64,000 nt of DNA from NCBI GenBank assembly GCA_947628815.1, contig CANRBJ010000002.1, positions 3,584 through 67,583 on the forward strand. Reading direction: 5' to 3'. Shown piece after piece: positions 6,747 through 34,597 of the stretch; position 1 is the first letter of the stretch, and each line of letters opens with the position of its first letter. The stretch comes from an uncultured Clostridia bacterium. Its GTDB lineage: Bacteria; Bacillota; Clostridia; TANB77; CAG-508. A model generated the notes under the pieces. It searched no databases, had not been told where the DNA came from, and was given only the letters and a program-made list of their open reading frames with translations. The translations under genes were made by a program, and so were the position numbers.

Positions 6747-7370
6747 TTAGTTGCGAATGAGACTATAGAATTCTTTTCTCAAATCGCTGTCGTTTTTGAA
6801 TGAGCCTCTAAGAGTAGCTGTACGAGTTACAGTACCAGGTTTCTTGATACCTCTCATTGTCATACACGCGTGTTCGCCTTCAATGACGACGATGATGTCT
6901 TCTGTGTCTAGTATCCGCTCAAGGACATCTGCGATATCTGAGCCGATTCTCTCCTGAAGCTGTAATCTCTTTGAAACCATATCAGCTACACGGGCAATCT
7001 TGCTCAATCCGATGACCTTACCGTTTGGAATGTAGCCTACGTGGACTCGCATCGAATACATGGTCGCCAGATGATGCTCGCACGTACTGAAGATAGGAAT
7101 GTTGGTTACCGTTACCAGGTCGTCGCTTACATCTTCATCAAAGCAGACGTCGAACATATCTGCGAGTTCTTTGTTGGTGTAGTTCATGCCTTCGAAGATC
7201 TCATCGTACATACGTCTTACTCGATTAGGCGTCTTTACAAGTCCAGGACGATCTGGATCATCTCCGATAGCAAGAATCAAATTGTATATACATTTCTCCA
7301 TGATATCTTCTCTAGTATCTGAGATTTCAACTCTTTTTAATTTAGATCTGTTGTCTTCAAAACAGTTCAT
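6747..7370 (-). CDS. folE: GTP cyclohydrolase I
   Basis: [35 protein letters not shown]...[15 protein letters not shown]...[16 protein letters not shown] are FolE signature segments. Confidence 0.9.
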
Positions 7371-7374
7371 ACTA

Positions 7375-8049
7375 TTACACTCCTCTCATTTCAGGTGGCC
7401 AAATAAACTTGTGCATCTGAAGCTGCATTCGAACATTGTTAAGATTGTTCTTGAGCAAATACTCTACAATTTCTTTCGGCTCGATTTTTTCAAATACAGG
7501 GCTCACGAAATAGGTTGCATTTGTTTGATTGCTCTGGACAATAGTCCGCATCTGGTCAAGGTCCTCGGCAGAGCCTACTACGAATTTCAATACATCTTTT
7601 TCTCTTAGAAAACCTATATTACTGTCGATCATCCTGTTCGACATTCCGCTTGTTTTGCTCTTCCAATCCATTGTAATGATGACATTATCCATAACTGTAT
7701 GAGGTAATTTCCTGTAAAGATCAAGCAAACTGATCGCTCCGTTTGTTTCTATGTTTACAGTTTCTACAGAAGTTTCAGACAGTATTCGTGGTATAAGTTC
7801 ATACACAGATGGATCTAATAGCGGCTCCCCTCCGGTGAGTGTAACTCGTTTGGCCAAGCTGTAATTTTCTTTCAGTAAATTTATGATAAAATCTACTGTA
7901 AGGTCTGTGTAGTCCTTGCCTTCTACTGCATACATTGAATCACAGTATGAACAACGAAGATTACATCCAAATGTCCTTATGAATACTGTAGGATAACCTG
8001 CAGTTATGCCTTCTCCGTCAATGCTCTCGAATATTTCTGATACTTTCAT
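7375..8049 (-). CDS. queE: 7-carboxy-7-deazaguanine synthase (radical SAM)
   Basis: [33 protein letters not shown] is the QueE-type radical-SAM cluster motif. Located within the que operon. Confidence 0.9.
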
Positions 8050-8477
8050 CCTCTTGTACCTCCGAACATCACCTCTTTAAGACCGATTCGTTCTTCTAGC
8101 GAACCTACCTCTGCAGATGCAATGTTTCCGTCAGATTCCTGCACTTCTACTCGATAACAGTAGCAGTTGCGTTTTTTATCTACCGGAAGTAGTGCAATGA
8201 AATATGCAGCCATATTCTCTGCAGTAGGATTGAAGTCATCTCGTCGTAGTTCTCTCTGAAGTACTTCGTTGATGTACTGATGATCAAATCTGTCATGAAT
8301 GTATTTTTTGATTGCTTTGAAGTCAATGACCATTCCGTTTGCATCAAGACGGTCGGATCTAAAGTATACTTTGATATGCCAGTTGTGTCCGTGCAACCTC
8401 TGACAAGGGCTGTCATAGTTTAGACTCAGTTTATGAGAACCTGCTATCTCAAGAGATTTGCAAACTGTATACTGCAT
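8046..8477 (-). CDS. queD: 6-carboxy-5,6,7,8-tetrahydropterin synthase (PTPS family)
   Basis: CQRLHGHNWHIKVYF is the QueD/PTPS zinc motif. There is a 4-nt overlap with queE. Confidence 0.85.
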   Translation of the reverse strand: MQYTVCKSLEIAGSHKLSLNYDSPCQRLHGHNWHIKVYFRSDRLDANGMVIDFKAIKKYIHDRFDHQYINEVLQRELRRDDFNPTAENMAAYFIALLPVDKKRNCYCYRVEVQESDGNIASAEVGSLEERIGLKEVMFGGTRG

Positions 8478-8479
8478 AA

Positions 8480-9181
8480 TTATTCTCCTTTCGTCTGTGC
8501 TGGATCTTCAATTCCATTTGCTGCAAATGCAGCAGCTCGGTCGATGCAAGTTCCGCATGTTCCACAAGGTACATCTCCACCTTCATAGCATGACCAAGTT
8601 AATTCATAAGGAACACCTAACTTGATGCCAGTAGCTACTACAGTTGCCTTATTCATATTTACCAGCGGAGCTTCAACATGAACATTTTTATATGTACCGA
8701 TGTTGATTGCTGTGCTCATTGCATCTGTAAATGCTTGACTACAATCAGCATATGCGTTACCAGCTGCATCATCTGCATGTGCACCGATATAGAGGCTCAC
8801 ATCTTCTTTAGGAAACAGCGACATTGCGAGTGCTGCTGCAGATGATAACATGAGGCCATTTCGGAAAGGAACATATGTGCTGACCATGCCCTCTCCGTCC
8901 TCTGCAATCTGCTCTGCGTAAGACTTGTGTTTGATTTCTTCTGTAGACTGTTTGAGTAGTGAGCAGTTGCTGTATTGCATGATATTTGTCAGATCAAGCA
9001 CATAATGTGCAACTTTGTAATAGTCTGCAACTTTCTGAGCGCAAACAAGCTCCTTGTCGTGCTTCTGACCATATTTGAATGAAACGGTGACAACATTTTC
9101 CGCACCAAACCTATCTACAGCGATACCTACGCAGGTAGTGGAATCAACCCCACCACTGCTCATAACAATAGCTTTTTTCAT
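8480..9181 (-). CDS. queC: 7-cyano-7-deazaguanine (preQ0) synthase
   Basis: PP-loop VMSSGGVDSTTC. C-terminal Zn cluster CYEGGDVPCGTCGTCIDR. ATG at 9181 lies 9 nt after an AAGGAGG RBS. Confidence 0.9.
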   Translation of the reverse strand: MKKAIVMSSGGVDSTTCVGIAVDRFGAENVVTVSFKYGQKHDKELVCAQKVADYYKVAHYVLDLTNIMQYSNCSLLKQSTEEIKHKSYAEQIAEDGEGMVSTYVPFRNGLMLSSAAALAMSLFPKEDVSLYIGAHADDAAGNAYADCSQAFTDAMSTAINIGTYKNVHVEAPLVNMNKATVVATGIKLGVPYELTWSCYEGGDVPCGTCGTCIDRAAAFAANGIEDPAQTKGE

Positions 9182-9195
9182 TTCTAACATCCTCC

Positions 9196-9708
9196 TTACA
9201 TATCATATCTGACAGTCCTATTTGATGCATCTTTGAGCACATCAAGCTGTCTTGATTCTACAAACGATTTGAACTTAGGAAATTTCGGGTTAGCCCAGTT
9301 GGCCATCGGAAAGATAGAGATGCCGCCCCTTGGGCTGAAGATTCCTCGAACTTCAATATATTTTGGATCCATTAGGTTGATGAGATCTTTCATGATGATG
9401 TTAACGCAGTCCTCGTGGAAATCCCCATGGTTGCGGAAGCTGAATAAATACAGCTTTAGAGACTTGCTCTCAACCATTTTTTCATTAGGGATATAGCTGA
9501 TGATAATTTTTGCAAAATCTGGTTGGCCGGTCTTAGGACACAAGCTCGAATATTCATATGCATCAAACGACACTACATAGTCATTGTCCGGGTGCTTGTT
9601 CGTGAAAGTCTCAAGTACTTCCGGAGTATAGTCGTAGTTATACTTGGTGTTTTTGTTTCCAAGAAGCGTAACACCTTCAAGCTCTTTTTTGTTTCTACCT
9701 TCTGCCAT
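9196..9708 (-). CDS. queF: NADPH-dependent 7-cyano-7-deazaguanine reductase (preQ0 to preQ1)
   Basis: [49 protein letters not shown] is the QueF catalytic Cys and QueF motif. ATG at 9708 lies 7 nt after a GGAGGT RBS. Confidence 0.85.
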
Positions 9709-9713
9709 CTTTA

Positions 9714-10403
9714 TTACCTCCAAATGAAATTATGGTTGATCATTTCTCCATTGTCAACAATGATGTCTTCGCCAGTACAACTTTTGTTTATCACAGACAA
9801 GAAGTAAATCCATTCAGCTGCTTCTTCAGCGGACATCCATTTTTTCATAGGGGTTTGATCTATGATGGCCTGCCAGAGATGCTTGTCTTTCATTACTGGG
9901 AGATTGAGTGTTGTTTCTACTCCGCCGAAAGAGAGGCTGTTTACAGTAACTCGTTTTGATGCAAAATATTTCGCTGCCCATACTGTGTAAGCGAGGACTC
10001 CACCTTTGCTTGCGACATACTCAGGAAATTCTGCACCGTTGTGCGCTGATACCGAAGCCAGATTTACAATAGATTTCAGATTGCTGTCATCTTGTATCGC
10101 ATATTTTTCTGTGCAATATATTACACCTTTCAAATTTACATCTATATCAGTACCGATGATGTTATTATCTTTAGGAGTTTGCTGACCTGCGTTGTTGATA
10201 AGAATACTCACCCCCGAAATATCAGGAAGTGTTTCAGGACGCGATACATCTGCAATATGGTGGATGTATTCATCGTGAGCGATCCTGCTCCCCTCGATGT
10301 CAATTCCGTGTACTGTGTAACCTTCTCTGAGGAATTTCTTTGCAGTTTCATATCCGATGCCGTTGGATGATCCAGTCACAACGACAAGTCCTTTAGCATT
10401 CAT
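9714..10403 (-). CDS. Short-chain dehydrogenase/reductase (SDR) family oxidoreductase
   Basis: [12 protein letters not shown] (TGxxxGIG), NNAG, and S...YVASK catalytic motifs. Overlaps yhhQ by 4 nt, and its stop lies between the queF RBS and start. Confidence 0.8.
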
Positions 10404-11146
10404 TGTTTATCCCTCCACCTGAAGTATTGAGATCCAACATTATCACGTTCCCAGGCTTTGTTTGCTTTGTATCCAAGCGGGCTGAAGACAATTTCGCACA
10501 ATAGTTCTGCAGCACATCCTGTAATAGAACAAACGACACACTGTAGCATAGTCCAGCCGAAGAATACATGGCTAACAATAAGTGCAAAAATCATATTATC
10601 AATGAATTGTCCAATCATTGTTGACACATATGACCTGACAGCGAATGCCTTGAAGTTGTTTGTTTTCATCATCTTGCCGATGAATTCATTTAGGAGAGAG
10701 TTGACAATCGCAGATACTAAGAATGCAACAGAGCTGCCAAACAGCACATACCAAGTTCCTGCAAACGTATCATCAAGGGCCTGGTTGACAATGCTGTTTT
10801 CATAAGTATAATACTCCCCCCAGTTACCTGGAACCTTCATGACGAGGAATAGTATCGCACATACCAGCAAGTTGCATCCTAATGCGAAAATCGAGATTTT
10901 GATTGAGGCTTTGGCGCCAAACCGCTTTGTCAACATGTCCATACTCAAGAAGCTGAGCCAACTGACAAAGAAGCCGCAGTCCAAAGTTAACCACGAGATG
11001 GGGATTTCAATTTCTCTGTTAGCAAGCAGGTTCATCAAGATAACAGATACTGTAAACAATGCTACTACCGAAGAAGGCACGTTCCTCATGAGAACTTTGA
11101 AATCTTCAACCTCGCGGTGGATTAGTCCTGTTTTTTGTTTTGACAT
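10400..11146 (-). CDS. yhhQ: YhhQ/DUF165-family queuosine-precursor (preQ0/preQ1) transporter
   Basis: Multi-pass membrane protein. FVSWLSFLSMDMLTKRFGAKAS resembles E. coli YhhQ FSFPFIFLATDLTVRIFGAPLA. First gene of the que operon. Confidence 0.65.
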   Translation of the reverse strand: MSKQKTGLIHREVEDFKVLMRNVPSSVVALFTVSVILMNLLANREIEIPISWLTLDCGFFVSWLSFLSMDMLTKRFGAKASIKISIFALGCNLLVCAILFLVMKVPGNWGEYYTYENSIVNQALDDTFAGTWYVLFGSSVAFLVSAIVNSLLNEFIGKMMKTNNFKAFAVRSYVSTMIGQFIDNMIFALIVSHVFFGWTMLQCVVCSITGCAAELLCEIVFSPLGYKANKAWERDNVGSQYFRWRDKQ

Positions 11147-19016: not shown

Positions 19017-20111
19017 TTATGCTAATGCTAATCGCATACCCTCATTTCTGATATTTATGGCAGCATTTACATCTCGGTTGTGCCGTGTACCGCACTCAGC
19101 ACAAATCCAGTTCCTTATGGACAAGTCCTTTGTTTCGGGATTTTTACAGCCACAAACATTGCAAATTTGACTGCTTGGAAAAAATTTATCAACTTTTATA
19201 AGCTTTTTTCCCGCTTCATCAAGTTTGTATTGCAGAAATGTTGTGAACATACCCCAACCATTATCGCTTACGGATTTGCCGAAGTGTAACGCCCCCGACA
19301 TAGCTTTCATGTCAAGATTTTCAATGCATACACAATCATAGGCATTGGCTATCTGTCTTGATTGCTTATGCAAAAAATCCTTACGCTGATTTGAAACCTT
19401 TTCGTGAAGTTTTGCAACCTTGATGCGCTGCTTATTACGGTTATTTGAATCTTTCTGCATATGAGATAACTTTCGCTGTTCTTTTGCAAGTTTAGCTTCA
19501 GAAAGGCGGTAGTATCTCGGATAATTAGGCTCATTGCCATCACTGTCAACATACAATTCGTGCATAGAAAAATCCAAACCTAAAAAGGAATGTGGTTCTA
19601 TTTGTTGTACTTGGCTTTCATACTCAAACAGAATACTTGCGTAATATTTACCGCTTGGATTTTGACTTACGGTTACAGATTTGAGTATGTAATCATCAGG
19701 TACTTGCCTATGCTGCTTGCACTTAACAAGCCCAATTTTGGGAAGTTTGAGTTGCCCGTTTTTTAGTGAGATATTGCCGTTTACATAATTTGTCGTATAA
19801 CTTCTATGGTTGGACTTTTTAGACTTGAATTTCGGAAAACCGACTTTAGGGTTTCTGAAAAAATTACCGTAAGCAGTTTGTAAATTCATTTGTGCGTTCG
19901 CAAGAGCAAGACTGTCAACTTCCTTTAACCACTCATATCTCGATTTGTACTGTGCCGGAGTGTTATTCAGCTTTTGATTTGTATTTTCATAATGCTTGAT
20001 TTTATCGGCAAGCATTTGGTTGTAGATAAAACGAACACATCCGAAGGTCTTGGCAAGCATTGTGCGTTGTTCTGCATTTGGGTATATTCTGAATTTATAT
20101 GCTTTATTCAA
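19017..20111 (-). CDS. tnpB: TnpB (OrfB) RNA-guided endonuclease of IS200/IS605
   Basis: RuvC residues are intact (GLDFS, CIENLD, NRDVNAAINI). Zinc ribbon CNVCG...CAECG. N-terminus MNKAYKFRIYPNAEQ is typical of TnpB. Confidence 0.9.
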   Translation of the reverse strand: MNKAYKFRIYPNAEQRTMLAKTFGCVRFIYNQMLADKIKHYENTNQKLNNTPAQYKSRYEWLKEVDSLALANAQMNLQTAYGNFFRNPKVGFPKFKSKKSNHRSYTTNYVNGNISLKNGQLKLPKIGLVKCKQHRQVPDDYILKSVTVSQNPSGKYYASILFEYESQVQQIEPHSFLGLDFSMHELYVDSDGNEPNYPRYYRLSEAKLAKEQRKLSHMQKDSNNRNKQRIKVAKLHEKVSNQRKDFLHKQSRQIANAYDCVCIENLDMKAMSGALHFGKSVSDNGWGMFTTFLQYKLDEAGKKLIKVDKFFPSSQICNVCGCKNPETKDLSIRNWICAECGTRHNRDVNAAINIRNEGMRLALA

Positions 20112-20117
20112 TGCTTC

Positions 20118-20510
20118 TCACCTTGACTTTCTATATATTTTTTTTATTACATTTATTGGTGCGCCGCCTGTTGTAAGCAAGCAAAAACTTTGACTCCAAA
20201 AATGTTCTTCCCAAAGTTTTTGTCGAATTGCAGGAAATTCTTTTTTCAAAAGGCGACTGCTTGCACTTTTGTAAGCATTTATGAATTTGCTCAACTCGCT
20301 TTTGGGGTGTGCCTTGAAAAGAATGTGGATATGGTCTTTATCATAATTCCATTCTTGAAGTGTAATATTGTATTTTGGAGCAATGTACTCAAATATTTCT
20401 TTTGCACGATACGAGATATTATCATCGAATACCTTTCGACGATATTTTACGACGAGTACAAGATGATAATACATCAGAAACACTGAATGTGCATTATTAT
20501 CTAATTCCAT
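20118..20510 (-). CDS. tnpA: IS200/IS605 Y1 (HUH) transposase TnpA
   Basis: YHLVLVVKYRRKVF, the HUH motif DKDHIHILF, and a C-terminal tyrosine region (INVIKKIYRK). Confidence 0.85.
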   Translation of the reverse strand: MELDNNAHSVFLMYYHLVLVVKYRRKVFDDNISYRAKEIFEYIAPKYNITLQEWNYDKDHIHILFKAHPKSELSKFINAYKSASSRLLKKEFPAIRQKLWEEHFWSQSFCLLTTGGAPINVIKKIYRKSR

Positions 20511-22436: not shown

Positions 22437-23408
22437 TTAATCAGATACAGGAGATCTTAAATAATTCGGAATCACTGATTTGTAAAGTTCATAAGCTTCA
22501 TCTGCTACTTTTTTCATATCTGGATGAGGTGCTCCGGTAGTACCTTTACTCCTCAAATCAAAGAAATGCTCCCACTGTCGTAAGTTAGCAGTCATAATCA
22601 CTTCAGTCTTCAAAGCATTTGGCAGAACTGCTCTGGCCTGCTGAGGTGTCATATGATAAACGTTTATAAGTTTCATATACGCTTTCTCTGCAGTATTTAA
22701 GCTATCCATGAAAGTATATATCGCTTCAGGTTCCCAAGATGCTAGATTACTGGGATTGATAAATACGATCTCTCCTCCGAATTTATCATCACTATAATTA
22801 CAGTATCTGGTAGATTCTTGTGCAAAACTGCAGCGATGCCTCACTAACTCATGAGATACGCCTCTATCACATATGAAATGGAAGGTTAAGAATTTGTGAT
22901 CCAGATAAATATTCGAAGGATTCATAAACTCTTTCTCTACATCATCTACTATCTGTACATATGTCTTAAAGATTTGAGCATCCTCATCTTCCACCCAGCA
23001 ATCTCCTATTCGGTTCGGATAATAATGTTCAATGAAACAATTCCATAAAACATTTTGGACTAATCTACCCGATATATCTTCCCTAATCAGGTGAGATAAA
23101 CTAACTGTGACATACGCGCCAGTCATACCGCTTGTTGGCTCAGTATATTCATCAAATTCTACATATCTATTAGACAAAGCAAATTGTTTTACGTCATCTA
23201 ACCAATTACACAGGTTGATCTTGAAAGTGACGTTGAAATGCTCTAACATAGCAAAATGCTTACGTTTAATAAGGCCCTTTACAAACTTATATGCACTGTC
23301 TTCGGTTATCTTGTCTTCTGATTTGTAACAAGTTCTCCCAACGACCTCAATATGCTTAAATGGATCTTTTTGTGGAATGATGGAAGCTGCTGAATTAGTC
23401 AATTTCAT
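22437..23408 (-). CDS. thyX: Flavin-dependent thymidylate synthase
   Basis: ThyX motif VSHELVRHRCSFAQESTRY (RHRxxSxxxxSxR). ATG at 23408 (MKLTNS) has an AAGGAG RBS; the track start at 23453 is a TTG. Confidence 0.85.
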   Translation of the reverse strand: MKLTNSAASIIPQKDPFKHIEVVGRTCYKSEDKITEDSAYKFVKGLIKRKHFAMLEHFNVTFKINLCNWLDDVKQFALSNRYVEFDEYTEPTSGMTGAYVTVSLSHLIREDISGRLVQNVLWNCFIEHYYPNRIGDCWVEDEDAQIFKTYVQIVDDVEKEFMNPSNIYLDHKFLTFHFICDRGVSHELVRHRCSFAQESTRYCNYSDDKFGGEIVFINPSNLASWEPEAIYTFMDSLNTAEKAYMKLINVYHMTPQQARAVLPNALKTEVIMTANLRQWEHFFDLRSKGTTGAPHPDMKKVADEAYELYKSVIPNYLRSPVSD

Positions 23409-23710
23409 AAAATTTCTCCTTCTTGTTTTAGTTTCTTTCCGCACATAAGGCAATTATTGATTTTCACAGTCAATCCATTACTACCACTACTGTGTAAATC
23501 ATATCCTTACGCAATTAAATTATTAGGGTATTGAATCGCAATACCTTTGTCATTTGTATCTCCTATTACAAGAGAGTTCCCCATTTCACAAAACGGGCAG
23601 GGATTTTGTCTCTCATTGGCCACCACTTCTTTATTATGTAATATTTATAATATAGGGAGATAAACATATAGCTATGATATTCTATCCCTCTATACTTACT
23701 AGATAGTGAT

Positions 23711-25021: not shown

Positions 25022-25288
25022 TTAAAGGTAGTTCTTTCTAAATTCTTCTTCAGTTATCTTAGCGATTCCCCATTTATCGGCTTTCTGATTCTTAGAAGAA
25101 TTCGAAGAAGGGTCATCGGTAATCAAGAATCTAGTATCTTTAGAAATATCACCTGCTATATATCCATAAGCTTTGAGTTCCTTTTCAAAATCAGCCCTTT
25201 TTACCGATAATTTTCCAGTTATAGCAACTTTTATTTTATTTTCAACTACCTTATCTTCTAGGGGATTTTTTTCTTGATACACGGTCAA
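25022..25288 (-). CDS. ligA: NAD-dependent DNA ligase, C-terminal BRCT segment, in a different frame from the ligase body
   Basis: KVAITGKLSVKRADFEKELKAYGYIAGDISKDTRFLITDDPSSNSSKNQKADKWGIAKITEEEF matches the LigA BRCT pattern. It only has a TTG start and overlaps the ligase body ORF across an A7 run (25266-25272). Confidence 0.7.
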   Translation of the reverse strand: MTVYQEKNPLEDKVVENKIKVAITGKLSVKRADFEKELKAYGYIAGDISKDTRFLITDDPSSNSSKNQKADKWGIAKITEEEFRKNYL

Positions 25289-26933
25289 ATATTAGATTCA
25301 ATCTATTGAACTTGCGAAGATTATCCAATATTGACTTAGCATTAGCTTCTCCTATAACACTAGACAATTTAGAACTTATCATATAGATATAACGATCATC
25401 GCGGTCGCTGGCATTCGACAATGCTAACACCTCATCTATTATATCAGGATACTTTGATAGCCTATCGCAGGTTTTGTCACCTAATCTCGGGATGTTAAGA
25501 GCTTTAAGCGCATCTGACATAGGTATATCTTTTCGGTTGTAGAGCATATCTAACATATCGTAGATAAGTTTTTTATGACCAGATGCGTGGTCTTGAATAT
25601 ACTCCATAGAATTATTAAGCATCAAGGTCTCTATGTTTAAATCTTTAGAGAACATCATATCTAAGAATTTAAATTTAATCTTATCGCCTAAGCCATCAAT
25701 CGGGGCAATATTTTCAATCCATACAGAAAGATCTTGACGGGCTGCGTTACCACAGAATTCATTGTTGCATTTAAGGTGCACACCATCCCATACTAATTCT
25801 TGGTGACATACTGGACATATCTTAGGTAATATTGATTTACTAGATTTTATAACTTTATTGATATTTGGTATGATTTCACCGTGTTTCTCTACCTCCACAA
25901 TTGAATCAACACCTATCTCATTATCCTTAATAAACTTTGCATTATATCCGGTACAATATTGAACTATAGTTCCAGATAATTCTACTGGAGCTATACGCAC
26001 TCTCGGCATAAGATAATTTGTTTTGGTCATGTTCCATTCAACTTCAAGTACTGGAGACTCCGCTACCTCTGAAGAAAACTTAAATGCTTGAGCATCATAT
26101 TTAACTTCGTAGGTATCTGAATCATATTGAAGCTTCATATTCTTAATAACTAGACCATCAATAGGATAGTCATGCTCTTTATTTAAATCCTCTGCCAATT
26201 CTGGAAAATCTGATATATTTTGTCTATCTATATCATAAATCATCTTAGAGGGTACTACTTTTTTAAAATTTTTCTCAAGCCAATGGTTCATGTACGTAAT
26301 ATAGTAGATAGGTAAAGAACCTCTTACATGACCCATTATTGTATATACTACAATACTTAAGAAATAAATATCTTCTGAAACGTCTTTAGAATTGATAATC
26401 CCAGCAGCAGAATTTCTTGAATTTTTTGCTTCTGGATGACGTTTCTTATATTCCTTCCAAGATTCACCGTCCATAAGAATTTCACCACGAACTGCCCCTG
26501 TGAATAATTTATCATCTATTTCCTCTGGAAGAATATATCTGATCTTATCGGTGATATCTATACCTACCTCTCCATTACCTCGGGTGAGGGCTCTGGCCAA
26601 TCTTCCATATTCATAATATAATACTACTGAAAGGCCATCTAATTTAAGAGATACTTGTACATCTTTTCTTTTAAGGGATTTTTGAATCTCCTCCCAAGAG
26701 TATGCCTTGTCAAGAGAACCGGCTAATCCGTATTTATGGGGAATCTTTTCACCTGGAGTAGAGTCTTTATTGACATCATATCCCCACCCGGTTTGTTTAA
26801 GTATCGGAGAATCAGGATCTTCTTTTCTTAATTCCTTCGTCATGCGGTCAAATTCTTCATCTGTATAAGAAGAGGTACCATCTGTATAATATTTTTGCGA
26901 GGCTTCTTTGATTTGGTTTTCTAATTTTGTCAT
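25251..26933 (-). CDS. ligA: NAD-dependent DNA ligase (adenylation, OB, Zn-finger and HhH domains)
   Basis: Adenylation lysine motif SLKLDGLSV. Zn finger CPVCHQ...CNNEFC. N-terminus YYTDGTSSYTDEEFD. Ends 13 codons after the A7 run, without a BRCT domain. Confidence 0.9.
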   Translation of the reverse strand: MTKLENQIKEASQKYYTDGTSSYTDEEFDRMTKELRKEDPDSPILKQTGWGYDVNKDSTPGEKIPHKYGLAGSLDKAYSWEEIQKSLKRKDVQVSLKLDGLSVVLYYEYGRLARALTRGNGEVGIDITDKIRYILPEEIDDKLFTGAVRGEILMDGESWKEYKKRHPEAKNSRNSAAGIINSKDVSEDIYFLSIVVYTIMGHVRGSLPIYYITYMNHWLEKNFKKVVPSKMIYDIDRQNISDFPELAEDLNKEHDYPIDGLVIKNMKLQYDSDTYEVKYDAQAFKFSSEVAESPVLEVEWNMTKTNYLMPRVRIAPVELSGTIVQYCTGYNAKFIKDNEIGVDSIVEVEKHGEIIPNINKVIKSSKSILPKICPVCHQELVWDGVHLKCNNEFCGNAARQDLSVWIENIAPIDGLGDKIKFKFLDMMFSKDLNIETLMLNNSMEYIQDHASGHKKLIYDMLDMLYNRKDIPMSDALKALNIPRLGDKTCDRLSKYPDIIDEVLALSNASDRDDRYIYMISSKLSSVIGEANAKSILDNLRKFNRLNLIFDRVSRKKSPRR

Positions 26934-27072: not shown

Positions 27073-27148
27073 TGGTTGGGTCGGTAGGATTCGAACCTAC
27101 GTATGACGGAGTCAAAGTCCGTTGCCTTCACCTCTTGGCAACAACCCA
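27073..27148 (-). tRNA. tRNA-Gln (anticodon UUG), CCA encoded
   Basis: Cloverleaf TGGGTTG-TT-GCCAAGAGGTGAAGGC-A-ACGGA-CTTTGAC-TCCGT-CATAC-GTAGG-TTCGAAT-CCTAC-CGACCCA-A-CCA. Architecture is close to bacterial tRNA-Gln. Confidence 0.85.
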
Positions 27149-27149
27149 A

Positions 27150-28085
27150 TATAGTATAAATGGAATAATATATTACTGAGAACCATTTCCGTTAGGAGGA
27201 TATGGTTCACTTAGAAATCAGATAACCAATCTGCAAAGATACTTCATTCTCAAAGCATCTTTCGTCTTCTCAGCACCTAACTGACTATTCGCTGACCTAT
27301 CCCTACCCTACGCCTAGACATTAAATAAAGGGGTCTGCGTAGCCTTCTTCCTCATCCTGGTTAATTTCTCCTTGAGATAGGATTTATGATAATATGCTTG
27401 AACCTTTGTATAGTTGCATATTATCCGTCTGACTAATTTGGCCTGGAGATTAGCCAGACTATCTTACTTTTTGGTACCAGATAGGTGTCACTAAGTCTCT
27501 TACTTCTTACCATGGTTTCCCTATCTAGGTAAAAGATGTATCATAGCGTATTCATCTTTTACCAGTAACATAAGTTTTTAATGCATATCGATCACGCTAT
27601 CAATCCTCTGCATAGACTTTTGGAATAGGGTTCCTTCCAACAGGAGGAGCCCTTTAAAGTCCTACCCCTCTATGAGTAGTCAACCCATCAAGCTTATAGG
27701 GGTGATTGCTTGGAGTGTCTCTTTGTAGCAAGATACATTCGAAGAACTGGTTGCTTAACCGCCAACCGCGGGGGATAATTTTTGACTATAGGTACATCCC
27801 ATCACTTGTCTTACCTATGACAGACACTGCGCACGAAAGCGTCCCGTCCTACCTTTATCAATCTTTATAGAATTCGATATACGGGTTAGATTGATAGGCA
27901 TAGGACCTCCTTTGTAGAAGCTCGTATATCTAATACTTACGAATTTATCATACATATGCTTGATAGGTCATAATAAAGATATTTTAGAAAACTCTGTTAT
28001 TGATGTTCTAAAATCCTTTCTTGCAGAGCGTGGACTGCAGTTATCAGATGAGAAGACATACGAAGATAAATTCTTTATAGTAAAT
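27150..28085. ncRNA. ORF-free, helix-rich ~0.93 kb segment between two tRNA genes: candidate large structured RNA (strand unresolved)
   Basis: No ORF of 60 aa or more on either strand, and visibly more GC-rich than the flanks. At least 9 helices, for example 27388-27397/27416-27425 (10 bp perfect), 27427-27437/27449-27459, 27475-27485/27520-27531 and 27846-27863/27889-27906 (16 of 18 pairs). Confidence 0.45.
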
Positions 28086-28166
28086 TGCACCGTCGAGGAC
28101 TCGAACCTCGGACTAAAGACTGACTTGATGTAGTCTATTTGCTCTAACCAACTGAGCTAACGGTAC
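28086..28166 (-). tRNA. tRNA-like gene with canonical acceptor, D and T arms but an aberrant anticodon arm (10-nt loop)
   Basis: GTACCGT-TA-GCTC-AGTTGGTTA-GAGC...CGAGG-TTCGAGT-CCTCG-ACGGTGC-A. The 30 nt in between fold only as AGACT/AGTCT around ACATCAAGTC. AGTC is repeated three times. No CCA is encoded. Confidence 0.5.
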
Positions 28167-28188
28167 ATATAAATATCTTTTATTCTTC

Positions 28189-28203
28189 ATTATATAACGA
28201 ATC
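28189..28203 (-). promoter_or_regulatory. Phage promoter-motif copy (ATTCGTTA-TATAAT) upstream of the tRNA-like gene
   Basis: The hexamer ends 22 nt upstream of the tRNA-like 5' end (28166). Confidence 0.5.
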
Positions 28204-28284
28204 TAAAATTAAGTTATTATATAATGAAAGAATACCTAGATGGGCCTATCCGAGGTGCCCTCTATAGAATAAATCTTATTTTAT

Positions 28285-28313
28285 ATTATATAACGAATTG
28301 AATCAAATGTCAA
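28285..28313 (-). promoter_or_regulatory. Perfect sigma-A promoter TTGACA-17 nt-TATAAT that also contains the ATTCGTTA motif in its spacer
   Basis: On the minus strand, TTGACA (28313-28308), a 17-nt spacer ending in ATTCGTTA, then TATAAT (28290-28285). Confidence 0.7.
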
Positions 28314-28514
28314 TACCGAAATATAAATAAATTAAAATTAAATTCTATTTACTTAGGGTCTAGGTGTCTCCTATCATATCTCTTCACGGAAGATAGTACC
28401 GCCATCTGTTATCGCTATAGTGGCATCGTCTTTGTATCGAAAAGAGTCCGTCTAGTTTTGATCCTATTTATAAGGGTTAGGTGGAAACTAAAATAAAATC
28501 TGTATATCCCTTAG

Positions 28515-28583
28515 TAGAAATTATCAGGATTGAACTGATATCTTTCCTTGTAACAGGAATGCTTTTCTTTAAGCTAAATTTCC
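28515..28583 (-). tRNA. Short tRNA-like gene (69 nt) with a 6-nt anticodon loop and a D-loop lacking GG
   Basis: GGAAATT-TA-GCTT-AAAGAA-AAGC-A-TTCCT-GTTACA-AGGAA-AGAT-ATCAG-TTCAATC-CTGAT-AATTTCT-A. The T arm and acceptor are good, but the anticodon loop is 6 nt (or 8 nt with a 4-bp stem). Confidence 0.4.
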
Positions 28584-29003: not shown

Positions 29004-29448
29004 TGGTGGACCTGAGGGGAGTCGAACCCCTGTCCAAAACGACTATAACTAAGAAACCTTTTTACGCAATAGACGATATTTTGTCACAAGAGTTCGTCAT
29101 TCTCTTGATCCTTATTTCTCTTCGTGTGTGACATATTCCGAAGTGACCTATTATAAGATCAATTGGGGCGCAAAGGTTGCACCACTCCACCACTCATTTT
29201 CTAAGAGCTAATGAGAAACCTTGTTGCTATCTCTATCTTTGAACCTCATATGTTTACCGAGAAGCAGGTACATAGTTTTGGTACCCTTAATTGCTGTTAG
29301 GCTGCTACCTTTCTTGCTGAAAGAGCTGCAATAGCAGCGGGGTGAATTGTAACAACTTTGTCAGTTATTTTAAAATTGCTCCGTAAAGTGGTAGCATACT
29401 TGCGAGTTTCAAAAGCTTAATTCGCCCTGTCGAAACCGATACAGGCCC
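29004..29448 (-). ncRNA. ssrA: tmRNA (transfer-messenger RNA), 445 nt
   Basis: 5' end GGGCCTGTATCGGTTTCGACAGGG and 3' end GGACAGGGGTTCGACTCCCCTCAGGTCCACCA. The acceptor stem has the G3-U70 alanine identity pair. The internal tag frame ends ...RKVAA-TAA (stop at 29299-29297). Confidence 0.85.
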
Positions 29449-29598
29449 ATTTAAAACGACTATTTTATTAGCCGTCCTCTTCTGGTAGCATACAAAGCAT
29501 AATTACAACCTCCTTATTAATTAAATCTACATTATTTTATTCGGAAATGACTAATAGATTCATCTAAGGAACTATTAGACTTCTAATGTATCAATCCT

Positions 29599-29994
29599 TT
29601 ACAAAGTTTCTAATATGCTGTAATTCTGATCTTGGCAATAATGCTCCATAGCTAATTTAAGGCAATCTGATTGAAGATACAATTTATCATCTATTTTATC
29701 CCATTCTGGATATGAATGATTTATGTATTCTAGATACGAATGATGTCTGTATAAAGTATATCTAGAAAATTGATTACGCTCAATAGCATAACGAGCTAAT
29801 ATTCCAGAATTTCCTTTAGTAGTAATAGAATGAGCTATTTCTCGTGCGTGGGAAATATCAGAACCTATCGGAATCATTCTTTGAACTATAAATATTCGCT
29901 TATCTTGATATTTATTGATGGATAACATAGCTGATAATATCATCAAATTAGATTTATCTCCTTGATTCATCACTACAACTCTATAAGGTGACAT
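29599..29994 (-). CDS. Hypothetical protein
   Basis: 131-codon ORF downstream of two tandem promoter-motif copies. Confidence 0.6.
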   Translation of the reverse strand: MSPYRVVVMNQGDKSNLMILSAMLSINKYQDKRIFIVQRMIPIGSDISHAREIAHSITTKGNSGILARYAIERNQFSRYTLYRHHSYLEYINHSYPEWDKIDDKLYLQSDCLKLAMEHYCQDQNYSILETL

Positions 29995-30098: not shown

Positions 30099-30113
30099 AT
30101 TCTATAACGATTT
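30099..30113 (-). promoter_or_regulatory. Phage promoter-motif copy (AATCGTTA-TAGAAT)
   Basis: In tandem with 30029-30043. Overlaps the stop of the S1-domain gene. Confidence 0.45.
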
Positions 30114-30531
30114 ATTTACGCCTATTGGAATTTATATTCTTCTTACTCTGCATCTTATCGTGATAAGCCCTATTAGCATCTTCTATCATCTCATCTAATG
30201 ACTTATTATGTCTAATTTTGGGTGTGTATGCAGTAGGTATATGGGACACCATCCTACCTGCATCTTTATCAGTGTTCATCTCCTTCTTAGATCTGATATT
30301 TAAATGAATCAATGATAATTCTGCACCCCGTATCTCGCTTTCTACTGCCTTGGCTGTGAGAACCTCCCCCATTGATACAAAATCAGATACATCTGATACA
30401 AATTTAGAAGATATCTTTGAAAGGTGAATAAATTCAGTATTATCTGATTCTTCAGATAATATGCGTACGACGATACCCTTAGAAAGCATTCTTACTACTT
30501 TTACTTCATATTCTTTACCAACTACTAACAT
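30112..30531 (-). CDS. S1 RNA-binding-domain protein
   Basis: VGKEYEVKVVRMLSKGIVVRIL...EFIHLSKISSKFVSDVSDFVSMGEVLTAKAV fits the S1/OB fold pattern. The C-terminal tail is basic. Confidence 0.65.
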   Translation of the reverse strand: MLVVGKEYEVKVVRMLSKGIVVRILSEESDNTEFIHLSKISSKFVSDVSDFVSMGEVLTAKAVESEIRGAELSLIHLNIRSKKEMNTDKDAGRMVSHIPTAYTPKIRHNKSLDEMIEDANRAYHDKMQSKKNINSNRRK

Positions 30532-30563: not shown

Positions 30564-32393
30564 TTATATAGATAGAAGGTTATTAGATAAATAATGAATA
30601 GATTTCTTAGAAGCTTCAGATGAATCGCATGGATTTACTCCTGCAAATATGAATTGCATGTTATCTTGAGTACTTAGAGCTTCCATAAGAATATTCATCC
30701 TATCATTATCTAGGTGATCAAACATATCATCGACCATAATTAGCTTAAGAGAGGACTTGCATCTTTCTACTAAGCATATCATAAGAGATAGGGCGTATAC
30801 ACATTTTTCTCCGCTGGATAGGAGATCATATGGGATATATCTGCCCTCTTTTTCTACCCCAAAACTGAAGCTGTTAGCCTTATTGCTCAAATTGAATCTT
30901 GCCATAACATCATCAGAAGCAAACAACTTCTTAAGGTATATACTAATATCTTCCTGCAGATTCATGAAGGGATATTCCATAAGCTTTGTTTGAAGATTAT
31001 TTGCGTCAGTTTTCTTCACCCAACTGTTAATTAAAGCAATAGATTGCTCAAGCTTATATTTCTCAACTGTAAGCTGATCAATAAGTTTATTGTACCTTTC
31101 GTTTGCTTCCATCTTAATAATTACATCCGTCAGAGATTTAATCTCCTCTGAGATCTTCTCTATATCCTGAATATCATCAGGTACGTCCTTTGTTCTTTCT
31201 AGAATTTCTAGCAACTTGCCCTTTCTGGCGTATCTATTTGCTATATCTTGAGCGTGATCACTAAAATTCATAAAATCTTTCTTGGCCTCAATGAGATCAG
31301 CATTCTTATTACTTATATTAGAATCGAGTTCGCTTAGCTCTTTTTTGAGACCTGTTACCTTTTCTTTATACTTATCTATAATATCTGAAATTCTATCACA
31401 AGGCGTTTTTAATATTGGACAAGTTGAATTATTTATCATTCTTGATATTGATAATATTTCTGAAGAAATATTATCTTTTCTTCCCATCATATCCTTCAAC
31501 TCATCAGTAAGTTTAGAAATAGTAGCATCTGAGGCTCTTGCACATTCGAGATATTTAATATATTCCACGTCATTATCTGCCGAATCAAATGGAGCTGATA
31601 TAGTAGCGAGTTCATCTTTGGCCTTGTTGCGCTCTTTAATCTTTAAGTTATTCTCACTTGCCTTAGATTGTATATTTTGCAGAGAAGATAATTTTTCCCT
31701 TAATTCTTCCAAAGTGTATTCTGATAGATCTGATATATCATCATGATACACCAAAGATTGAATCGTGGATTGATGTCTTGATAATTCAGTCTTTTTAAAA
31801 GATAATAGTTGTTTCATGTAAGTATTCCCAGCAGCAACTTCTTCCGCTCCGCCTACTACTCCAGATTGTTTAATACCTGCCAAGATAGTTGGTATTAAAT
31901 CCTTATCCCTGATTTCATCATCTGATACAAGAATATCATTCCAATCAATAGACTGATCAGATTTTGGAAGGAATTTAATAAACCAAGCTTTAAGTTGATT
32001 TGCTGTCATTCCTACGAAATCATTAAAATTAAATACTGGAAGCTCCATTTCCTCTAGGATTGATCTGATGTCATAGTCTTCTGGAACAATCTCCATAGAA
32101 GCTTTTATGCTTCCAGGCTTACCGGACCATTTACGTCTAACTGTAACAGCCCTACCATCATCGTCCAGCCTTATTTCTACAATCATAGGGCTACCGCTTG
32201 AGTGACTGAAAATAGATTCATTTGTTTTATTAGTACCGGGAATATAACCAAGTAGGGCTAGTTGAATGGCCTGAAGAATAGTAGATTTTCCAGCTCCATT
32301 AGGTCCTACAAAATAAGTCATGCCGGAATTCAAATGAATGATTTCTTCTGTCGTCTTGTGCATATTCTTGATATAGATTGATTGAATTTTCAT
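30564..32393 (-). CDS. SbcC/Rad50-like SMC-family ATPase
   Basis: Walker A FVGPNGAGKSTILQAI, a long central coiled-coil, signature LSSGEKCV, and Walker B LIMVDDMFDHLD. Confidence 0.7.
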   Translation of the reverse strand: MKIQSIYIKNMHKTTEEIIHLNSGMTYFVGPNGAGKSTILQAIQLALLGYIPGTNKTNESIFSHSSGSPMIVEIRLDDDGRAVTVRRKWSGKPGSIKASMEIVPEDYDIRSILEEMELPVFNFNDFVGMTANQLKAWFIKFLPKSDQSIDWNDILVSDDEIRDKDLIPTILAGIKQSGVVGGAEEVAAGNTYMKQLLSFKKTELSRHQSTIQSLVYHDDISDLSEYTLEELREKLSSLQNIQSKASENNLKIKERNKAKDELATISAPFDSADNDVEYIKYLECARASDATISKLTDELKDMMGRKDNISSEILSISRMINNSTCPILKTPCDRISDIIDKYKEKVTGLKKELSELDSNISNKNADLIEAKKDFMNFSDHAQDIANRYARKGKLLEILERTKDVPDDIQDIEKISEEIKSLTDVIIKMEANERYNKLIDQLTVEKYKLEQSIALINSWVKKTDANNLQTKLMEYPFMNLQEDISIYLKKLFASDDVMARFNLSNKANSFSFGVEKEGRYIPYDLLSSGEKCVYALSLMICLVERCKSSLKLIMVDDMFDHLDNDRMNILMEALSTQDNMQFIFAGVNPCDSSEASKKSIHYLSNNLLSI

Positions 32394-32932: not shown

Positions 32933-34597
32933 TTAATCCTCCTTTTCATAGCATCTGAATACTTTTAGATGTTTCTTAGCTCTGGTGATTCCTACATAAA
33001 ATAAATTAAAATTTTCTTCATTACTAAGTCGGAATTTCCGGCTACCTACTCCTAAAAGATACACATTATCAAATTCCAATCCCTTAGAAGAGTGTATAGT
33101 CCCCACATATACCTCAGATTTCTTCTGATTATTTATCATAGAAATAAGGTATTCGCAGCAGTCTTTTACAGTACAACACTCAGAATCATCTAAGGGTTCT
33201 TCTAATTTGACCCCTAATGTATTTAATATATCTACCATTCTTGAAAGCTTCGAAGATTTATCCCTTCTTAGAAATATCTTTCTTACTTCAGATACAGCAA
33301 TCAACCTTTTGGATATCTCATAGGTAGAACCATAGTAGTGAATAAATACTTCCTTTGGAGTTCTTTCTTCTGATTCTATGGCGACATTTCTTATGTACTC
33401 TGAAAACCTATTAGAGTCTAGGAAAGTGGATAACCAATTTATCATATAAGAATCATCTGTAACAGATCTGAGTATATTGATACAATCAGAGTTATCATGA
33501 TTGGTAGAACAACAAATACCTTTAGATCTCAGATAGTTTACAGATAATTCTACTTCGCTATTAGTTCTTGCTAATACTGCATAATTACCATCTCTGGTAC
33601 CAGACTGAATATCTTTCACTACTGCTGATATTTCGTCTAAATTTATAATTTTGTCGAAATCATATTCATGACTCATGTATTCTTCTACATCACCACTGTC
33701 TAATATGTTATCTTTATCGGAATTAATAGCAATTCTATAACTTGGATCAGCATATTTACTATTTACATTAGCATATTCACAGATAGATCGTGTAGAACGA
33801 TAATTCTGATACAATTTGACTGTACTCCATTCTTTATCTTCTGCTAATGACATAATTATAGAACTATCTGCGCCTCTAAAAGAATAGATGCTCTGGAGAG
33901 CGTCGCCAACTACGAATAATTTAGAATCTTTAAAGGAACTTATGAACTCATACTGACGAGGGTCAGTATCTTGAAATTCATCCACAAAGATATATTTATA
34001 TTGATCTTTATATTGCAACACAGTTGGGTCATCTGAATTGAATAGCTCGCATACCTTATAACATAACTGATCAAATGTAATGAGATTTGCTGCATGATAA
34101 AGTCGGTAAAGGCACTTACTATATATCTTAATGGCTTGCTCATCTTTCATGTCTAATACTTTTGATCCACCATTTAACTTCTTATCTGATATCTTTATAC
34201 CACATTGCATTTTTGCTTGCATACTTAGCTTTCTACTTTCTTCATTAGAGGCTATCTTAGGTATCTTAAAGTACCCCAACTTCTTTCTCACTTCTAAGTC
34301 TTTAGATATTAGAGAGTAGCAGAAACTGTGGAATGTACGAAATTCAGGATATTTAGGTCCTGTATTTTGCCTCATGTATCTTTCCTTCATTTCAAAAGCC
34401 GCCGCATTAGTAAATGTAAGTACTAATATACTAGATGGGTCAATTCCAGAATTGACTATTCTTGTCAGCCTAGATACCATACAGAACGTCTTACCAGTAC
34501 CTGCACCAGCCAAACACAATATCTTATTCGCTTCTAAGTCTACCGCTTTTTGCTGTTGATCATTCAGACCTAATCTATTAACTACAGCATTTGTCAT
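32933..34597 (-). CDS. UvrD/PcrA/Rep-family (SF1) DNA helicase
   Basis: Motif I LAGAGTGKTF, motif II IFVDEFQDT, motif III VGDALQSIYSFRGA, motif VI TIHSSKGLEFDNVYLLG. Confidence 0.85.
   Translation of the reverse strand: MTNAVVNRLGLNDQQQKAVDLEANKILCLAGAGTGKTFCMVSRLTRIVNSGIDPSSILVLTFTNAAAFEMKERYMRQNTGPKYPEFRTFHSFCYSLISKDLEVRKKLGYFKIPKIASNEESRKLSMQAKMQCGIKISDKKLNGGSKVLDMKDEQAIKIYSKCLYRLYHAANLITFDQLCYKVCELFNSDDPTVLQYKDQYKYIFVDEFQDTDPRQYEFISSFKDSKLFVVGDALQSIYSFRGADSSIIMSLAEDKEWSTVKLYQNYRSTRSICEYANVNSKYADPSYRIAINSDKDNILDSGDVEEYMSHEYDFDKIINLDEISAVVKDIQSGTRDGNYAVLARTNSEVELSVNYLRSKGICCSTNHDNSDCINILRSVTDDSYMINWLSTFLDSNRFSEYIRNVAIESEERTPKEVFIHYYGSTYEISKRLIAVSEVRKIFLRRDKSSKLSRMVDILNTLGVKLEEPLDDSECCTVKDCCEYLISMINNQKKSEVYVGTIHSSKGLEFDNVYLLGVGSRKFRLSNEENFNLFYVGITRAKKHLKVFRCYEKED

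Follow-up and report, generated by a model that had tools for sequence, protein, structure and literature searches.

A one-piece tmRNA gene with a long, conserved tag in the tRNA array of a T4-like myovirus from the rabbit gut

The tmRNA gene and its tRNA-like domain

The DNA analysed here (the window) is a 64,000-nt stretch of contig CANRBJ010000002.1 (positions 3,584 to 67,583; assembly GCA_947628815.1), filed under an uncultured Clostridia bacterium, and belongs to a T4-like myovirus of about 126 kb from the rabbit gut. A complete gene for a one-piece transfer-messenger RNA (tmRNA, ssrA) of 445 nt lies at window positions 29004-29448 on the minus strand, so that RNA position p corresponds to window position 29449 - p. 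The Rfam covariance model RF00023 matches it over the whole model (positions 1-374, not truncated) with 82.1 bits and an E value of 2.6e-30, against a gathering score of 47 bits. A preliminary description of the window, made from the letters alone, had proposed a phage-encoded tmRNA with exactly these ends, and the identity is confirmed by the model. The gene is longer than the longest member (425 nt) of a comparative set published in 2005, in which about 350 nt was typical (PMC1168896). Homologous genes, described below, form a family of about 13 distinct sequences of 388-458 nt.

In the raw sequence the 5' terminus is GGGCCTGTATCGGTTTCGACAGGG and the 3' terminus GGACAGGGGTTCGACTCCCCTCAGGTCCACCA. 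The tRNA-like domain possesses a 7-bp acceptor stem, a T arm with a loop of the GUUCGAnUC type, and a discriminator A followed by CCA, and it lacks an anticodon arm. The 5' strand of the acceptor stem, GGGCCUG (RNA 1-7, 29442-29448), is paired at 7/7 positions with 29008-29014 and contains G3 of the G3.U70 alanine identity pair. The T arm (AGGGG UUCGACU CCCCU), the acceptor 3' strand CAGGUCC, the discriminator A and the encoded CCA occupy 29004-29031. The termini, the G3.U70 determinant and the encoded CCA had all been read correctly in the preliminary description. The 5' strand of helix 2a, CAGGGCGA (RNA 20-27, 29422-29429), is paired at 8/8 positions with RNA 407-414, which form the end of the helix 2 3' strand CUAUUGCGUAAAAAGGUUUCUUAGUUAUAGUCGUUUUG (RNA 377-414, 29035-29072) delimited by the Rfam alignment. 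This strand includes the motif CUAnnGnGUAAnAA, which is invariant across the family, and helix 2a covaries.

The pairing was tested on register-exact segments of the acceptor stem, helix 2a and the T stem in eight distinct family members. Standard pairs occupied 99.4% of cells, compared with 39-58% when the partners were slid by 1-3 columns, and 10 of the 20 pairs remained paired through changes on both sides. These compensatory changes affect 3/7 pairs of the acceptor stem, in which the G.U at position 3 is invariant in all eight sequences, 4/8 pairs of helix 2a, and 3/5 pairs of the T stem, which is paired at 5/5 positions.

One sub-clade of the family, with tmRNAs of 403 nt (L056, 6714-7116; L059, 7826-8228; L061, 9953-10355), has an atypical tRNA-like domain. 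Its T stem comprises 6 bp, the loop reads GGCGGUU (or GGCAGUU) where UUCGA would normally be found, and AAAUAGAUUCGAC is the counterpart of the D loop. These RNAs score 50.8-60.7 bits with RF00023 and retain the tag DTTVVTLHPALLAVLGQRAVA with a UGA stop.

The mRNA-like and pseudoknot domains

Pseudoknot 1 (PK1; RNA 48-72, 29377-29401) is composed of the stems S1 (AAGU/ACUU) and S2 (UGCU/AGCA) and ends 14 nt ahead of the resume codon. It is modelled in part by RF00023, and in 11 of 12 family members a scripted search found an equivalent H-type pseudoknot, the stems of which covary (e.g. UGACCC/GGGUCA and UGUUUU/GAAACA). Helix 5 (RNA 111-148, 29301-29338) is formed by GCUGCUA/UAGCAGC and UUGC/GCAA; the 3' half of the tag sequence lies inside it and the stop codon at its 3' edge. 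A hairpin of this type can be formed in each family member and is also present in the Rfam alignment of the window gene.

Downstream, helices of the PK2 type (RNA ~164-208, 29241-29285) consist of ACC/GGU around CUAUGUACC/GGU..ACAUA and include the conserved blocks CCAAAAC and UGAGGUUCA. RNAalifold applied to six members predicts 11 pairs in this region, 7 of which are retained via both-side changes. The next element is the block UGGUGGAG (29185-29192), located between the hairpins CUCAUU/AAUGAG and GGUGCAA/UUGCGCC (29167-29215 in total). The block is invariant in 12/12 aligned members, and the flanking hairpins covary on inspection of the alignment. The remaining part of the pseudoknot domain (RNA 283-376, 29073-29166) is variable and expanded and accounts for the extra length of the gene: Rfam places here a 151-nt insertion against 55 consensus positions. 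In the family, the spacing between UGGUGGAG and helix 2 is 85-112 nt, and the fold of this segment is given by neither RF00023 nor RNAalifold.

Resume codon and tag peptide

The tag reading frame (29297-29362) starts with the resume codon GAC (29362-29360), contains 21 sense codons encoding DKVVTIHPAAIAALSARKVAA, and is terminated by TAA (29299-29297). With the alanine carried by the tRNA-like domain the tag is (A)DKVVTIHPAAIAALSARKVAA, a peptide of 22 residues. The frame GAC AAA GTT ... GCA GCC TAA follows AAAAUAACU, with U at position -5 and A at -4. The preliminary description had given the same frame, coordinates, upstream context and peptide while calling the resume codon not proven, and the assignment can now be supported from several sides. 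The window GAC is aligned to the consensus resume codon of RF00023. In the homologues at loci L004, L005 and L045, ARAGORN itself calls the tmRNA and reads the tag DKVVSIHPAAIAALFARKAVA, which is in the same frame and nearly identical to the DKVVTIHPAAIAALSARKVAA of the window. The U-A at -5/-4 is found in 11/12 family members; the role of bases upstream of the resume codon is among the matters treated in PMC2481249.

The tag frame is intact in all family members. Further tags include DTTIIAIHPAFAASSLKAAA, ANDTVVMFHPALIRACCRAAA, DEDHIAIHPAFIAALASQKVAA, DEIITINPAFVKFVAAKVAA and D(N/T)TVVTLHPALLAVLGQRAVA, while two members have short, ordinary-looking tags (DTGIFANPAQAAA and ANTFKPVGVAA). Every tag terminates in -AA or -VA. 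A core of the form [I/L]-[H/N]-P-A is present in eight long tags, and each of the two short tags has a reduced version (N-P-A or K-P-V), the proline being invariant. Within the four core codons, pairwise differences per site amount to 0.21, 0.00 and 0.55 at the first, second and third codon positions, respectively, with synonymous replacements such as ATT/ATC, CAC/CAT, CCC/CCT and GCT/GCA/GCG. No conservation of the other two frames was seen across the family. The dominance of third-position differences, together with the unconserved alternative frames, indicates that the peptide, and not the RNA alone, is under selection. Taken with the model alignment, the ARAGORN calls in homologues and the U-A context, this coding pattern means that the GAC assignment stands.

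The commonest tag length in a database of 97,179 sequences is 10 amino acids (PMC11915505), and in a baseline of 80 unrelated loci in which a tmRNA adjoins smpB the tags comprise 9-13 codons, with a few at 16-18. The tag of the window, at 21 codons, is about twice the modal length; however, it is inside the known range, which reaches 27 amino acids in Mesoplasma florum (PMC9097571). The earlier wording 'unusually long' thus holds relative to the mode and not relative to the range.

Related tmRNAs and their distribution

In blastn and megablast searches of 50,697 GenBank phage records, the tmRNA shared only the final ~50 nt of its tRNA-like domain, with two faecal phage contigs that lack annotation, and the surrounding 20 kb had no match. 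Relatives were reached through the SbcC-like ATPase encoded upstream of the tmRNA gene (30564-32393). A single-sequence search of IMG/VR with this protein gave no match, whereas an alignment-based search found homologues (35-43% identity), which are common on contigs of 50-250 kb. With nhmmer profiles, homologous tmRNAs of 423-458 nt were located in L004, L005, L045, L008, L034 and L026, in each case 3' of the SbcC-like gene, among tRNAs, and 5' of the ligase gene. The tmRNA thus occupies the same syntenic site, although the identity of the adjacent SbcC-like proteins is only 35-42%.

A family pattern (UGGUGGAG, 84-114 nt, CUAnnGnGUAAnAA, 19 nt, UUUnGGAC) matched 5 loci in viral and 10 in metagenome sequences. 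Among 185,579 species genomes its sole occurrence was on a phage-like contig of 213 kb binned as Herbinix, which argues against the gene being simply a host gene. All family members tested exceed the RF00023 gathering score (50.8-93.2 bits), and each lies within a tRNA array. The related phage-like contigs come from the rumen and gut. In the wider group, a tmRNA is present within 10 kb in 3 of the 45 viral loci anchored on the SbcC-like gene; in six sampled loci lacking it, tRNAs are present and the general tmRNA model finds nothing. The tmRNA is therefore an accessory element of the tRNA array in one sub-lineage, with an architecture confined to phage-like contigs.

The names of the metagenome-assembled genomes that include such contigs of about 213 kb are discordant. 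L060 (JAQUYQ010000001.1), which carries the tmRNA, is labelled 'Herbinix sp.', and the SbcC-like homologue P0063, encoded on a contig of 213,361 bp, 'Bacteroidaceae bacterium'. Bin labels are therefore unreliable as host evidence in this group.

The searches also brought up an unrelated viral tmRNA at 3094-3489 of L001 (IMGVR_UViG_3300043429_001023; 396 nt, 54% G+C, 112 bits). Its last 32 nt, and nothing else, are identical to the window tmRNA; its tag is (A)DESLLQNVA, and its resume codon is also GAC. In L004, the UvrD-type helicase gene (6911-9397) encodes 828 aa, compared with 535-554 aa in relatives, and the product matches an intein-splicing domain, so that this helicase probably contains an intein.

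Phage genome, tRNA array and host

Nearly all open reading frames (ORFs) of the window are on the minus strand, and the G+C content is about 35%. PHROG and Pfam searches identified a major head protein of the Gp23 family (57314-58765), a prohead protease (58795-60195), an NAD-dependent ligase (25251-26933), a UvrD-type helicase (32933-34597), the SbcC-like ATPase mentioned above and ThyX (22437-23453). Genes for gp13, gp25, a GH25 muramidase, proteins with CHAP and M23 domains and an r1t-type holin are located just outside the window. The tmRNA gene is interior to this genome, with the capsid, protease, gp13, gp25, holin, lysin and replication genes all on one strand, and its phage location, asserted earlier from the letters, is borne out. 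Nine contigs, independent of each other and up to 126-127 kb long, carry the locus, and the DNA sequencing runs that contain it are rabbit gut metagenomes. In the 126,305-bp contig NODE_30 of ENA entry ERZ27249377 the window occupies about 22.9-86.9 kb.

Downstream of the tmRNA gene, a small array (27073-28583) comprises three genes on the minus strand. One encodes tRNA-Gln(UUG) (27073-27148; called by ARAGORN, 64.1 bits with the Rfam tRNA model). The second (28085-28167; 45.8 bits) is a tRNA-like gene of 83 nt, called as Val(UAC), in which the extra arm is long and the anticodon stem is mismatched. The third (28514-28583; 50 bits) has a 6-nt anticodon loop, GUUACA, and is reported by ARAGORN as 'Stop|Val, anticodon ta'. 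The latter two may be degenerate, or they may be unusual decoders or suppressors.

The region 6747-11146 on the minus strand encodes a 7-deazaguanine (queuosine-precursor) set consisting of GTP cyclohydrolase I, a radical-SAM QueE-like protein, PTPS/QueD, QueC, QueF, a short-chain dehydrogenase and a transporter of the Vut_1/YhhQ type; a second PTPS gene lies just past the window start. Such a gene set suggests that bases of the phage DNA are modified or that the queuosine of tRNAs is manipulated.

Shine-Dalgarno motifs precede 50 of 64 ORFs, compared with about 11% of random positions. The closest cultured capsids are those of Streptococcus, Listeria and Bacillus myoviruses (~25% identity), and lysin matches are confined to phages of Bacillota. 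An IS200/IS605 element (19017-20510, minus strand) comprises a TnpA Y1 transposase (20118-20510) and TnpB (19017-20111). Very many proteins from gut metagenomes share 80-90% identity with the TnpB, whose sole named match, in a Christensenellaceae metagenome-assembled genome (80%), is a weak clue to the host lineage. The Shine-Dalgarno use, lysis genes, and capsid and TnpB matches point to a walled host of the Bacillota.

Upstream region and SmpB

The preliminary description had noted a 10-codon ORF, MLCMLPEEDG (29468-29500, minus strand), just upstream of the tmRNA gene. The ORF is present, with the ribosome-binding site AAGGAGGT 7 nt upstream of it. No counterpart was found upstream of 11 related tmRNAs, whose upstream regions are unrelated. 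A conserved leader peptide is thereby ruled out, and the ORF is probably not a functional part of the locus. A repeat search showed that two 11-nt segments of the tmRNA recur exactly, and in unchanged order, in the leader (29453-29493, minus strand). One copy, GTATGCTACCA (29483-29493), lies inside the 10-codon ORF and equals RNA 50-60 (29389-29399), a segment of PK1; the other, ATAGTCGTTTT (29453-29463), is 5 nt ahead of the gene and equals RNA 403-413 (29036-29046) of the helix 2a 3' strand. Two such repeats are unlikely to occur by chance. They may be the scar of a rearrangement (a collapsed second copy), or, in the precursor, they may allow the leader to base-pair with the 5' strand of the tmRNA.

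Two neighbouring ORFs were considered as dedicated partners of the tmRNA and rejected. An S1-domain ORF (30112-30531, minus strand; 22.3 bits with the Pfam S1 model, cutoff 22) is conserved directly behind the SbcC-like gene in 21/45 loci, most of which have no tmRNA. A 131-aa ORF (29599-29994) has no family match, and its homologue is located ~1.7 kb from the tmRNA in L004, L005 and L045.

No SmpB was detected between window positions -6819 and 73278, about 80 kb of the ~126-kb genome, by tblastn with three queries at E<=10. One query was validated against SmpB chains of the PDB (E ~1e-46), and a positive-control locus gave 1e-103. SmpB is also absent from the Pfam lists of genes called in the flanks. 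The earlier statement that no SmpB-like ORF is visible in the window is thus upheld, and the genome-wide search which it recommended is negative over the part covered. A weak check of the family genomes agrees, in that the best 80 SmpB-bearing viral contigs, beyond which there were 258 further matches, include no family contig. In view of its absence from these ~80 kb, the SmpB of the host is presumably used.

Possible function and alternative explanations

The locus is likely to encode a functional one-piece tmRNA belonging to a phage-specific, oversized clade that resides in the tRNA arrays of large T4-like myoviruses infecting Bacillota of the gut and rumen. What the sequence comparisons show is a complete tmRNA gene in a phage, selectively maintained, with the alanine identity pair and a positioned, conserved tag frame. 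The RNA would be transcribed with the surrounding early and replication genes and the tRNAs, and then processed by host RNase P and 3' processing enzymes to the encoded CCA end; co-transcription with neighbours and tRNA-type processing are likely. Charging would be performed by the host alanyl-tRNA synthetase through the invariant G3.U70. Bound by host SmpB, the RNA could then enter, with EF-Tu, ribosomes stalled on broken mRNAs. Translation would resume at GAC, placed by PK1 and the U-A at -5/-4, adding alanine and DKVVTIHPAAIAALSARKVAA up to the UAA stop in helix 5, and addition of the 22-residue tag would be followed by termination and release of the ribosome. The alanine-rich end ...K-V-A-A resembles ordinary Gram-positive ssrA degrons, and tagged products would probably be degraded by a ClpXP-type protease, and the core [V/I]-x-[I/L]-[H/N]-P-A-hydrophobic may offer an adaptor or protease a further site of recognition.

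The likely benefit is that ribosomes stay available in the late phase of infection, at which time mRNA decay and nucleases of host or defence origin would generate many non-stop messages and the supply of host tmRNA would fall. This parallels the role proposed for the phage's own tRNA array, and similar proposals have been published for phage tmRNAs (PMC9004378, PMC7162821). The phage may maintain or reprogram ribosome rescue, as suggested in the preliminary description, which was correct in essentials: the identity of the RNA, its phage location, the resume codon, the tag, and the lack of SmpB in the window.

Several observations weigh against a functional phage tmRNA, or leave room for other interpretations. 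ARAGORN, a check named in the preliminary description, calls no tmRNA in the window, just three tRNA-like genes, and it also calls none in L008, L026 and L034; since Rfam and the calls in the homologues L004, L005 and L045 agree, this is a sensitivity limit of the program and not counter-evidence to the gene. The pseudoknot domain past PK2 fits RF00023 poorly, with low posterior probabilities in addition to the 151-nt insertion. A scan for promoters and terminators by the tmRNA gene revealed nothing above shuffled expectation. No RNA sequencing run contains the tmRNA sequence, the best ones (bovine metatranscriptomes) sharing 4% of words. A phage smpB is possible in the other ~46 kb of the genome, outside the ~80 kb searched. 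Part of the tag conservation could reflect an RNA constraint of helix 5 rather than the peptide, from which the single-stranded IHPA core is exempt. Finally, the scan of the genome collection for the ssrA tag of the host gave only the 213-kb phage-like contig.

Explanations without an active tagging role fare worse. A recently captured host ssrA, surviving as a passenger or decaying pseudogene with no part in infection, would account for the ARAGORN rejection of the window copy, for the scrambled 11-nt copies in the leader, which suggest a past rearrangement, and for the patchy occurrence in the wider group (3/45 loci, with tRNAs alone in the six sampled). It is nevertheless very improbable and is largely refuted by covariation: every helix of the tRNA-like domain is kept by compensatory changes, the tag frame is uninterrupted in every member and has a coding pattern, position, architecture and tag are conserved among phages at 35-42% protein identity, and the body pattern occurs on no bacterial chromosome among the 185,579 species genomes. 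The RNA could instead be a decoy that titrates host SmpB or alanyl-tRNA synthetase and shuts down host trans-translation, as proposed for the molecule of phage DS6A, which consists of the tRNA-like domain (TLD) only. TLD-only phage tmRNA does inhibit tmRNA in Escherichia coli (PMC4131195, PMC11915505), and with no phage SmpB found in ~80 kb the RNA would compete for that of the host. The gene, however, still has PK1, the sequence context for resumption, an open and conserved tag frame, a helix 5 that includes the stop, and the pseudoknot domain, none of which a pure decoy would need, and this makes a decoy hardly credible. The suggestion that the gene is an attachment-site relic, i.e. a partial 3' fragment of ssrA left by an element integrating into the host tmRNA gene, draws on the frequent use of ssrA as an integration site and on the prophage ends that are common beside host smpB-ssrA in IMG/VR (PMC11915505). 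It can be practically dismissed: the match is full-length (model 1-374) and refutes a 3' fragment, the gene lies centrally in a module of replication and tRNA genes, in a T4-like genome of the lytic type, and the ~80 kb examined revealed no integrase.

Another possibility, which does not exclude a functional phage tmRNA, is that the tag has been retargeted, its core directing products to Lon, to an SspB-like adaptor or to a phage factor, so that their fate is reprogrammed and the RNA does more than top up the host tmRNA. The core [I/L]-[H/N]-P-A-(A/F/L)-(I/L/V) remains constant and has a coding signature while the flanks of the tag diverge, the tag is about twice the modal length both in the published database (PMC11915505) and in the local baseline, and the architecture is restricted to phage-like contigs. 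The Lon-directed tag of M. florum is likewise long and contains an internal x-P-T-F-M-L core (PMC9097571, PMC9382460). However, the likeness to Mollicutes extends over 4-5 residues, and the ends are K-V-A-A, A-V-A or A-A-A instead of the NYAFA read by M. florum Lon (PMC9382460). The GH25, CHAP, M23 and holin genes imply a walled host, hence no Mollicute, two members have short, ordinary-looking tags (ANTFKPVGVAA, DTGIFANPAQAAA), and the host lineage itself may use such a tag. Retargeting is therefore tentative and on the unlikely side.

More specifically, it is conceivable, if rather doubtful, that the clade has evolved a tmRNA lineage in which the internal [V/I]-x-[I/L]-[H/N]-P-A-hydrophobic signal, beside the generic -AA end, has a dedicated reader, whether an adaptor of the host or phage or a non-default protease. 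If so, the fate of proteins from stalled ribosomes would be redirected, e.g. towards faster or selective clearance or towards escape from host quality control or defence, and factors specific to the clade would bind to the UGGUGGAG block and to the expanded pseudoknot domain.

Comparison with known tmRNA systems

Phage tmRNAs have been catalogued but are functionally near-unstudied. They have been described in eight Bxz1-like mycobacteriophages and Bacillus phage G (PMC4131195), huge phages carry tmRNA together with SmpB (PMC7162821), and ARAGORN detected tmRNAs in 402 of 18,146 phage genomes, i.e. about 2% (PMC9004378). Since surveys that use ARAGORN alone, which is how phage tmRNAs are normally counted, miss members of the present clade (the window copy, L008, L026 and L034), this figure is likely an underestimate for gut phages. 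For annotation, the gene is now fixed together with its ends and tag. The ~13 diverged copies, with a securely read tag and an internal motif, provide a comparative handle on whether phages merely top up ribosome rescue or alter the tagging signal. The conserved tag core, which is the interesting part, and the phage-restricted architecture make this a concrete, testable hypothesis.

With standard one-piece tmRNAs, such as SsrA of E. coli (363 nt, tag AANDENYALAA), the window gene shares the tRNA-like domain with G3.U70, T arm and CCA, the long helix 2, a PK1 ~14 nt before the resume codon, the U-A at -5/-4, an Ala-Ala tag end, a stop in helix 5 and a downstream pseudoknot domain. It differs in being phage-encoded without an adjacent smpB, in its length (445 nt vs ~350), in resuming at GAC (Asp) and not GCA, and in its 21 tag codons compared with the modal 10. 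The internal IHPA core, the UGGUGGAG block and the expanded, variable 3' part of the pseudoknot region are further differences.

The long tags of Mollicutes, exemplified by AANKNEENTNEVPTFMLNAGQANYAFA of M. florum, which is degraded by Lon, are long like the window tag and share with it a conserved internal x-P-(A/T)-F-hydrophobic core and a low-GC, Bacillota-related setting. The family tags, however, end in KVAA, AVA or AAA rather than NYAFA, the window tag has 22 residues against 27, and the host is walled. The KVAA end, together with the GH25 muramidase, CHAP, M23 and r1t-type holin genes, sets the window tag apart from the Lon-directed tags of the Mollicutes type. The likeness of the cores, which concerns a few residues (x-P-T-F-M-L in M. 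florum), is at the sequence level a lead and not a sign of membership. The TLD-only RNA of DS6A likewise comes from a phage, resembles a tRNA and would be a competitor for host SmpB, but it lacks an mRNA-like domain, which in the window gene is complete and conserved.

The closest parallels are the known phage tmRNAs of Bxz1-like mycobacteriophages, Bacillus phage G, huge phages and marine myophages of the Melnitz type. These are likewise complete ssrA genes of large tailed phages, usually located beside tRNAs, and have been proposed to sustain the hijacked translation machinery (PMC4131195, PMC7162821, PMC9004378). The window tmRNA is one-piece, whereas the Melnitz form is two-piece and linked to a riboswitch. 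Some huge phages co-encode SmpB, in contrast to the window phage, for which none was found in the ~80 kb searched. The window tmRNA also forms its own clade, seen only in gut and rumen metagenomes. Phage tmRNAs as such are thus already known, and this one stands out by its size, by the UGGUGGAG block and by its long, conserved tag.

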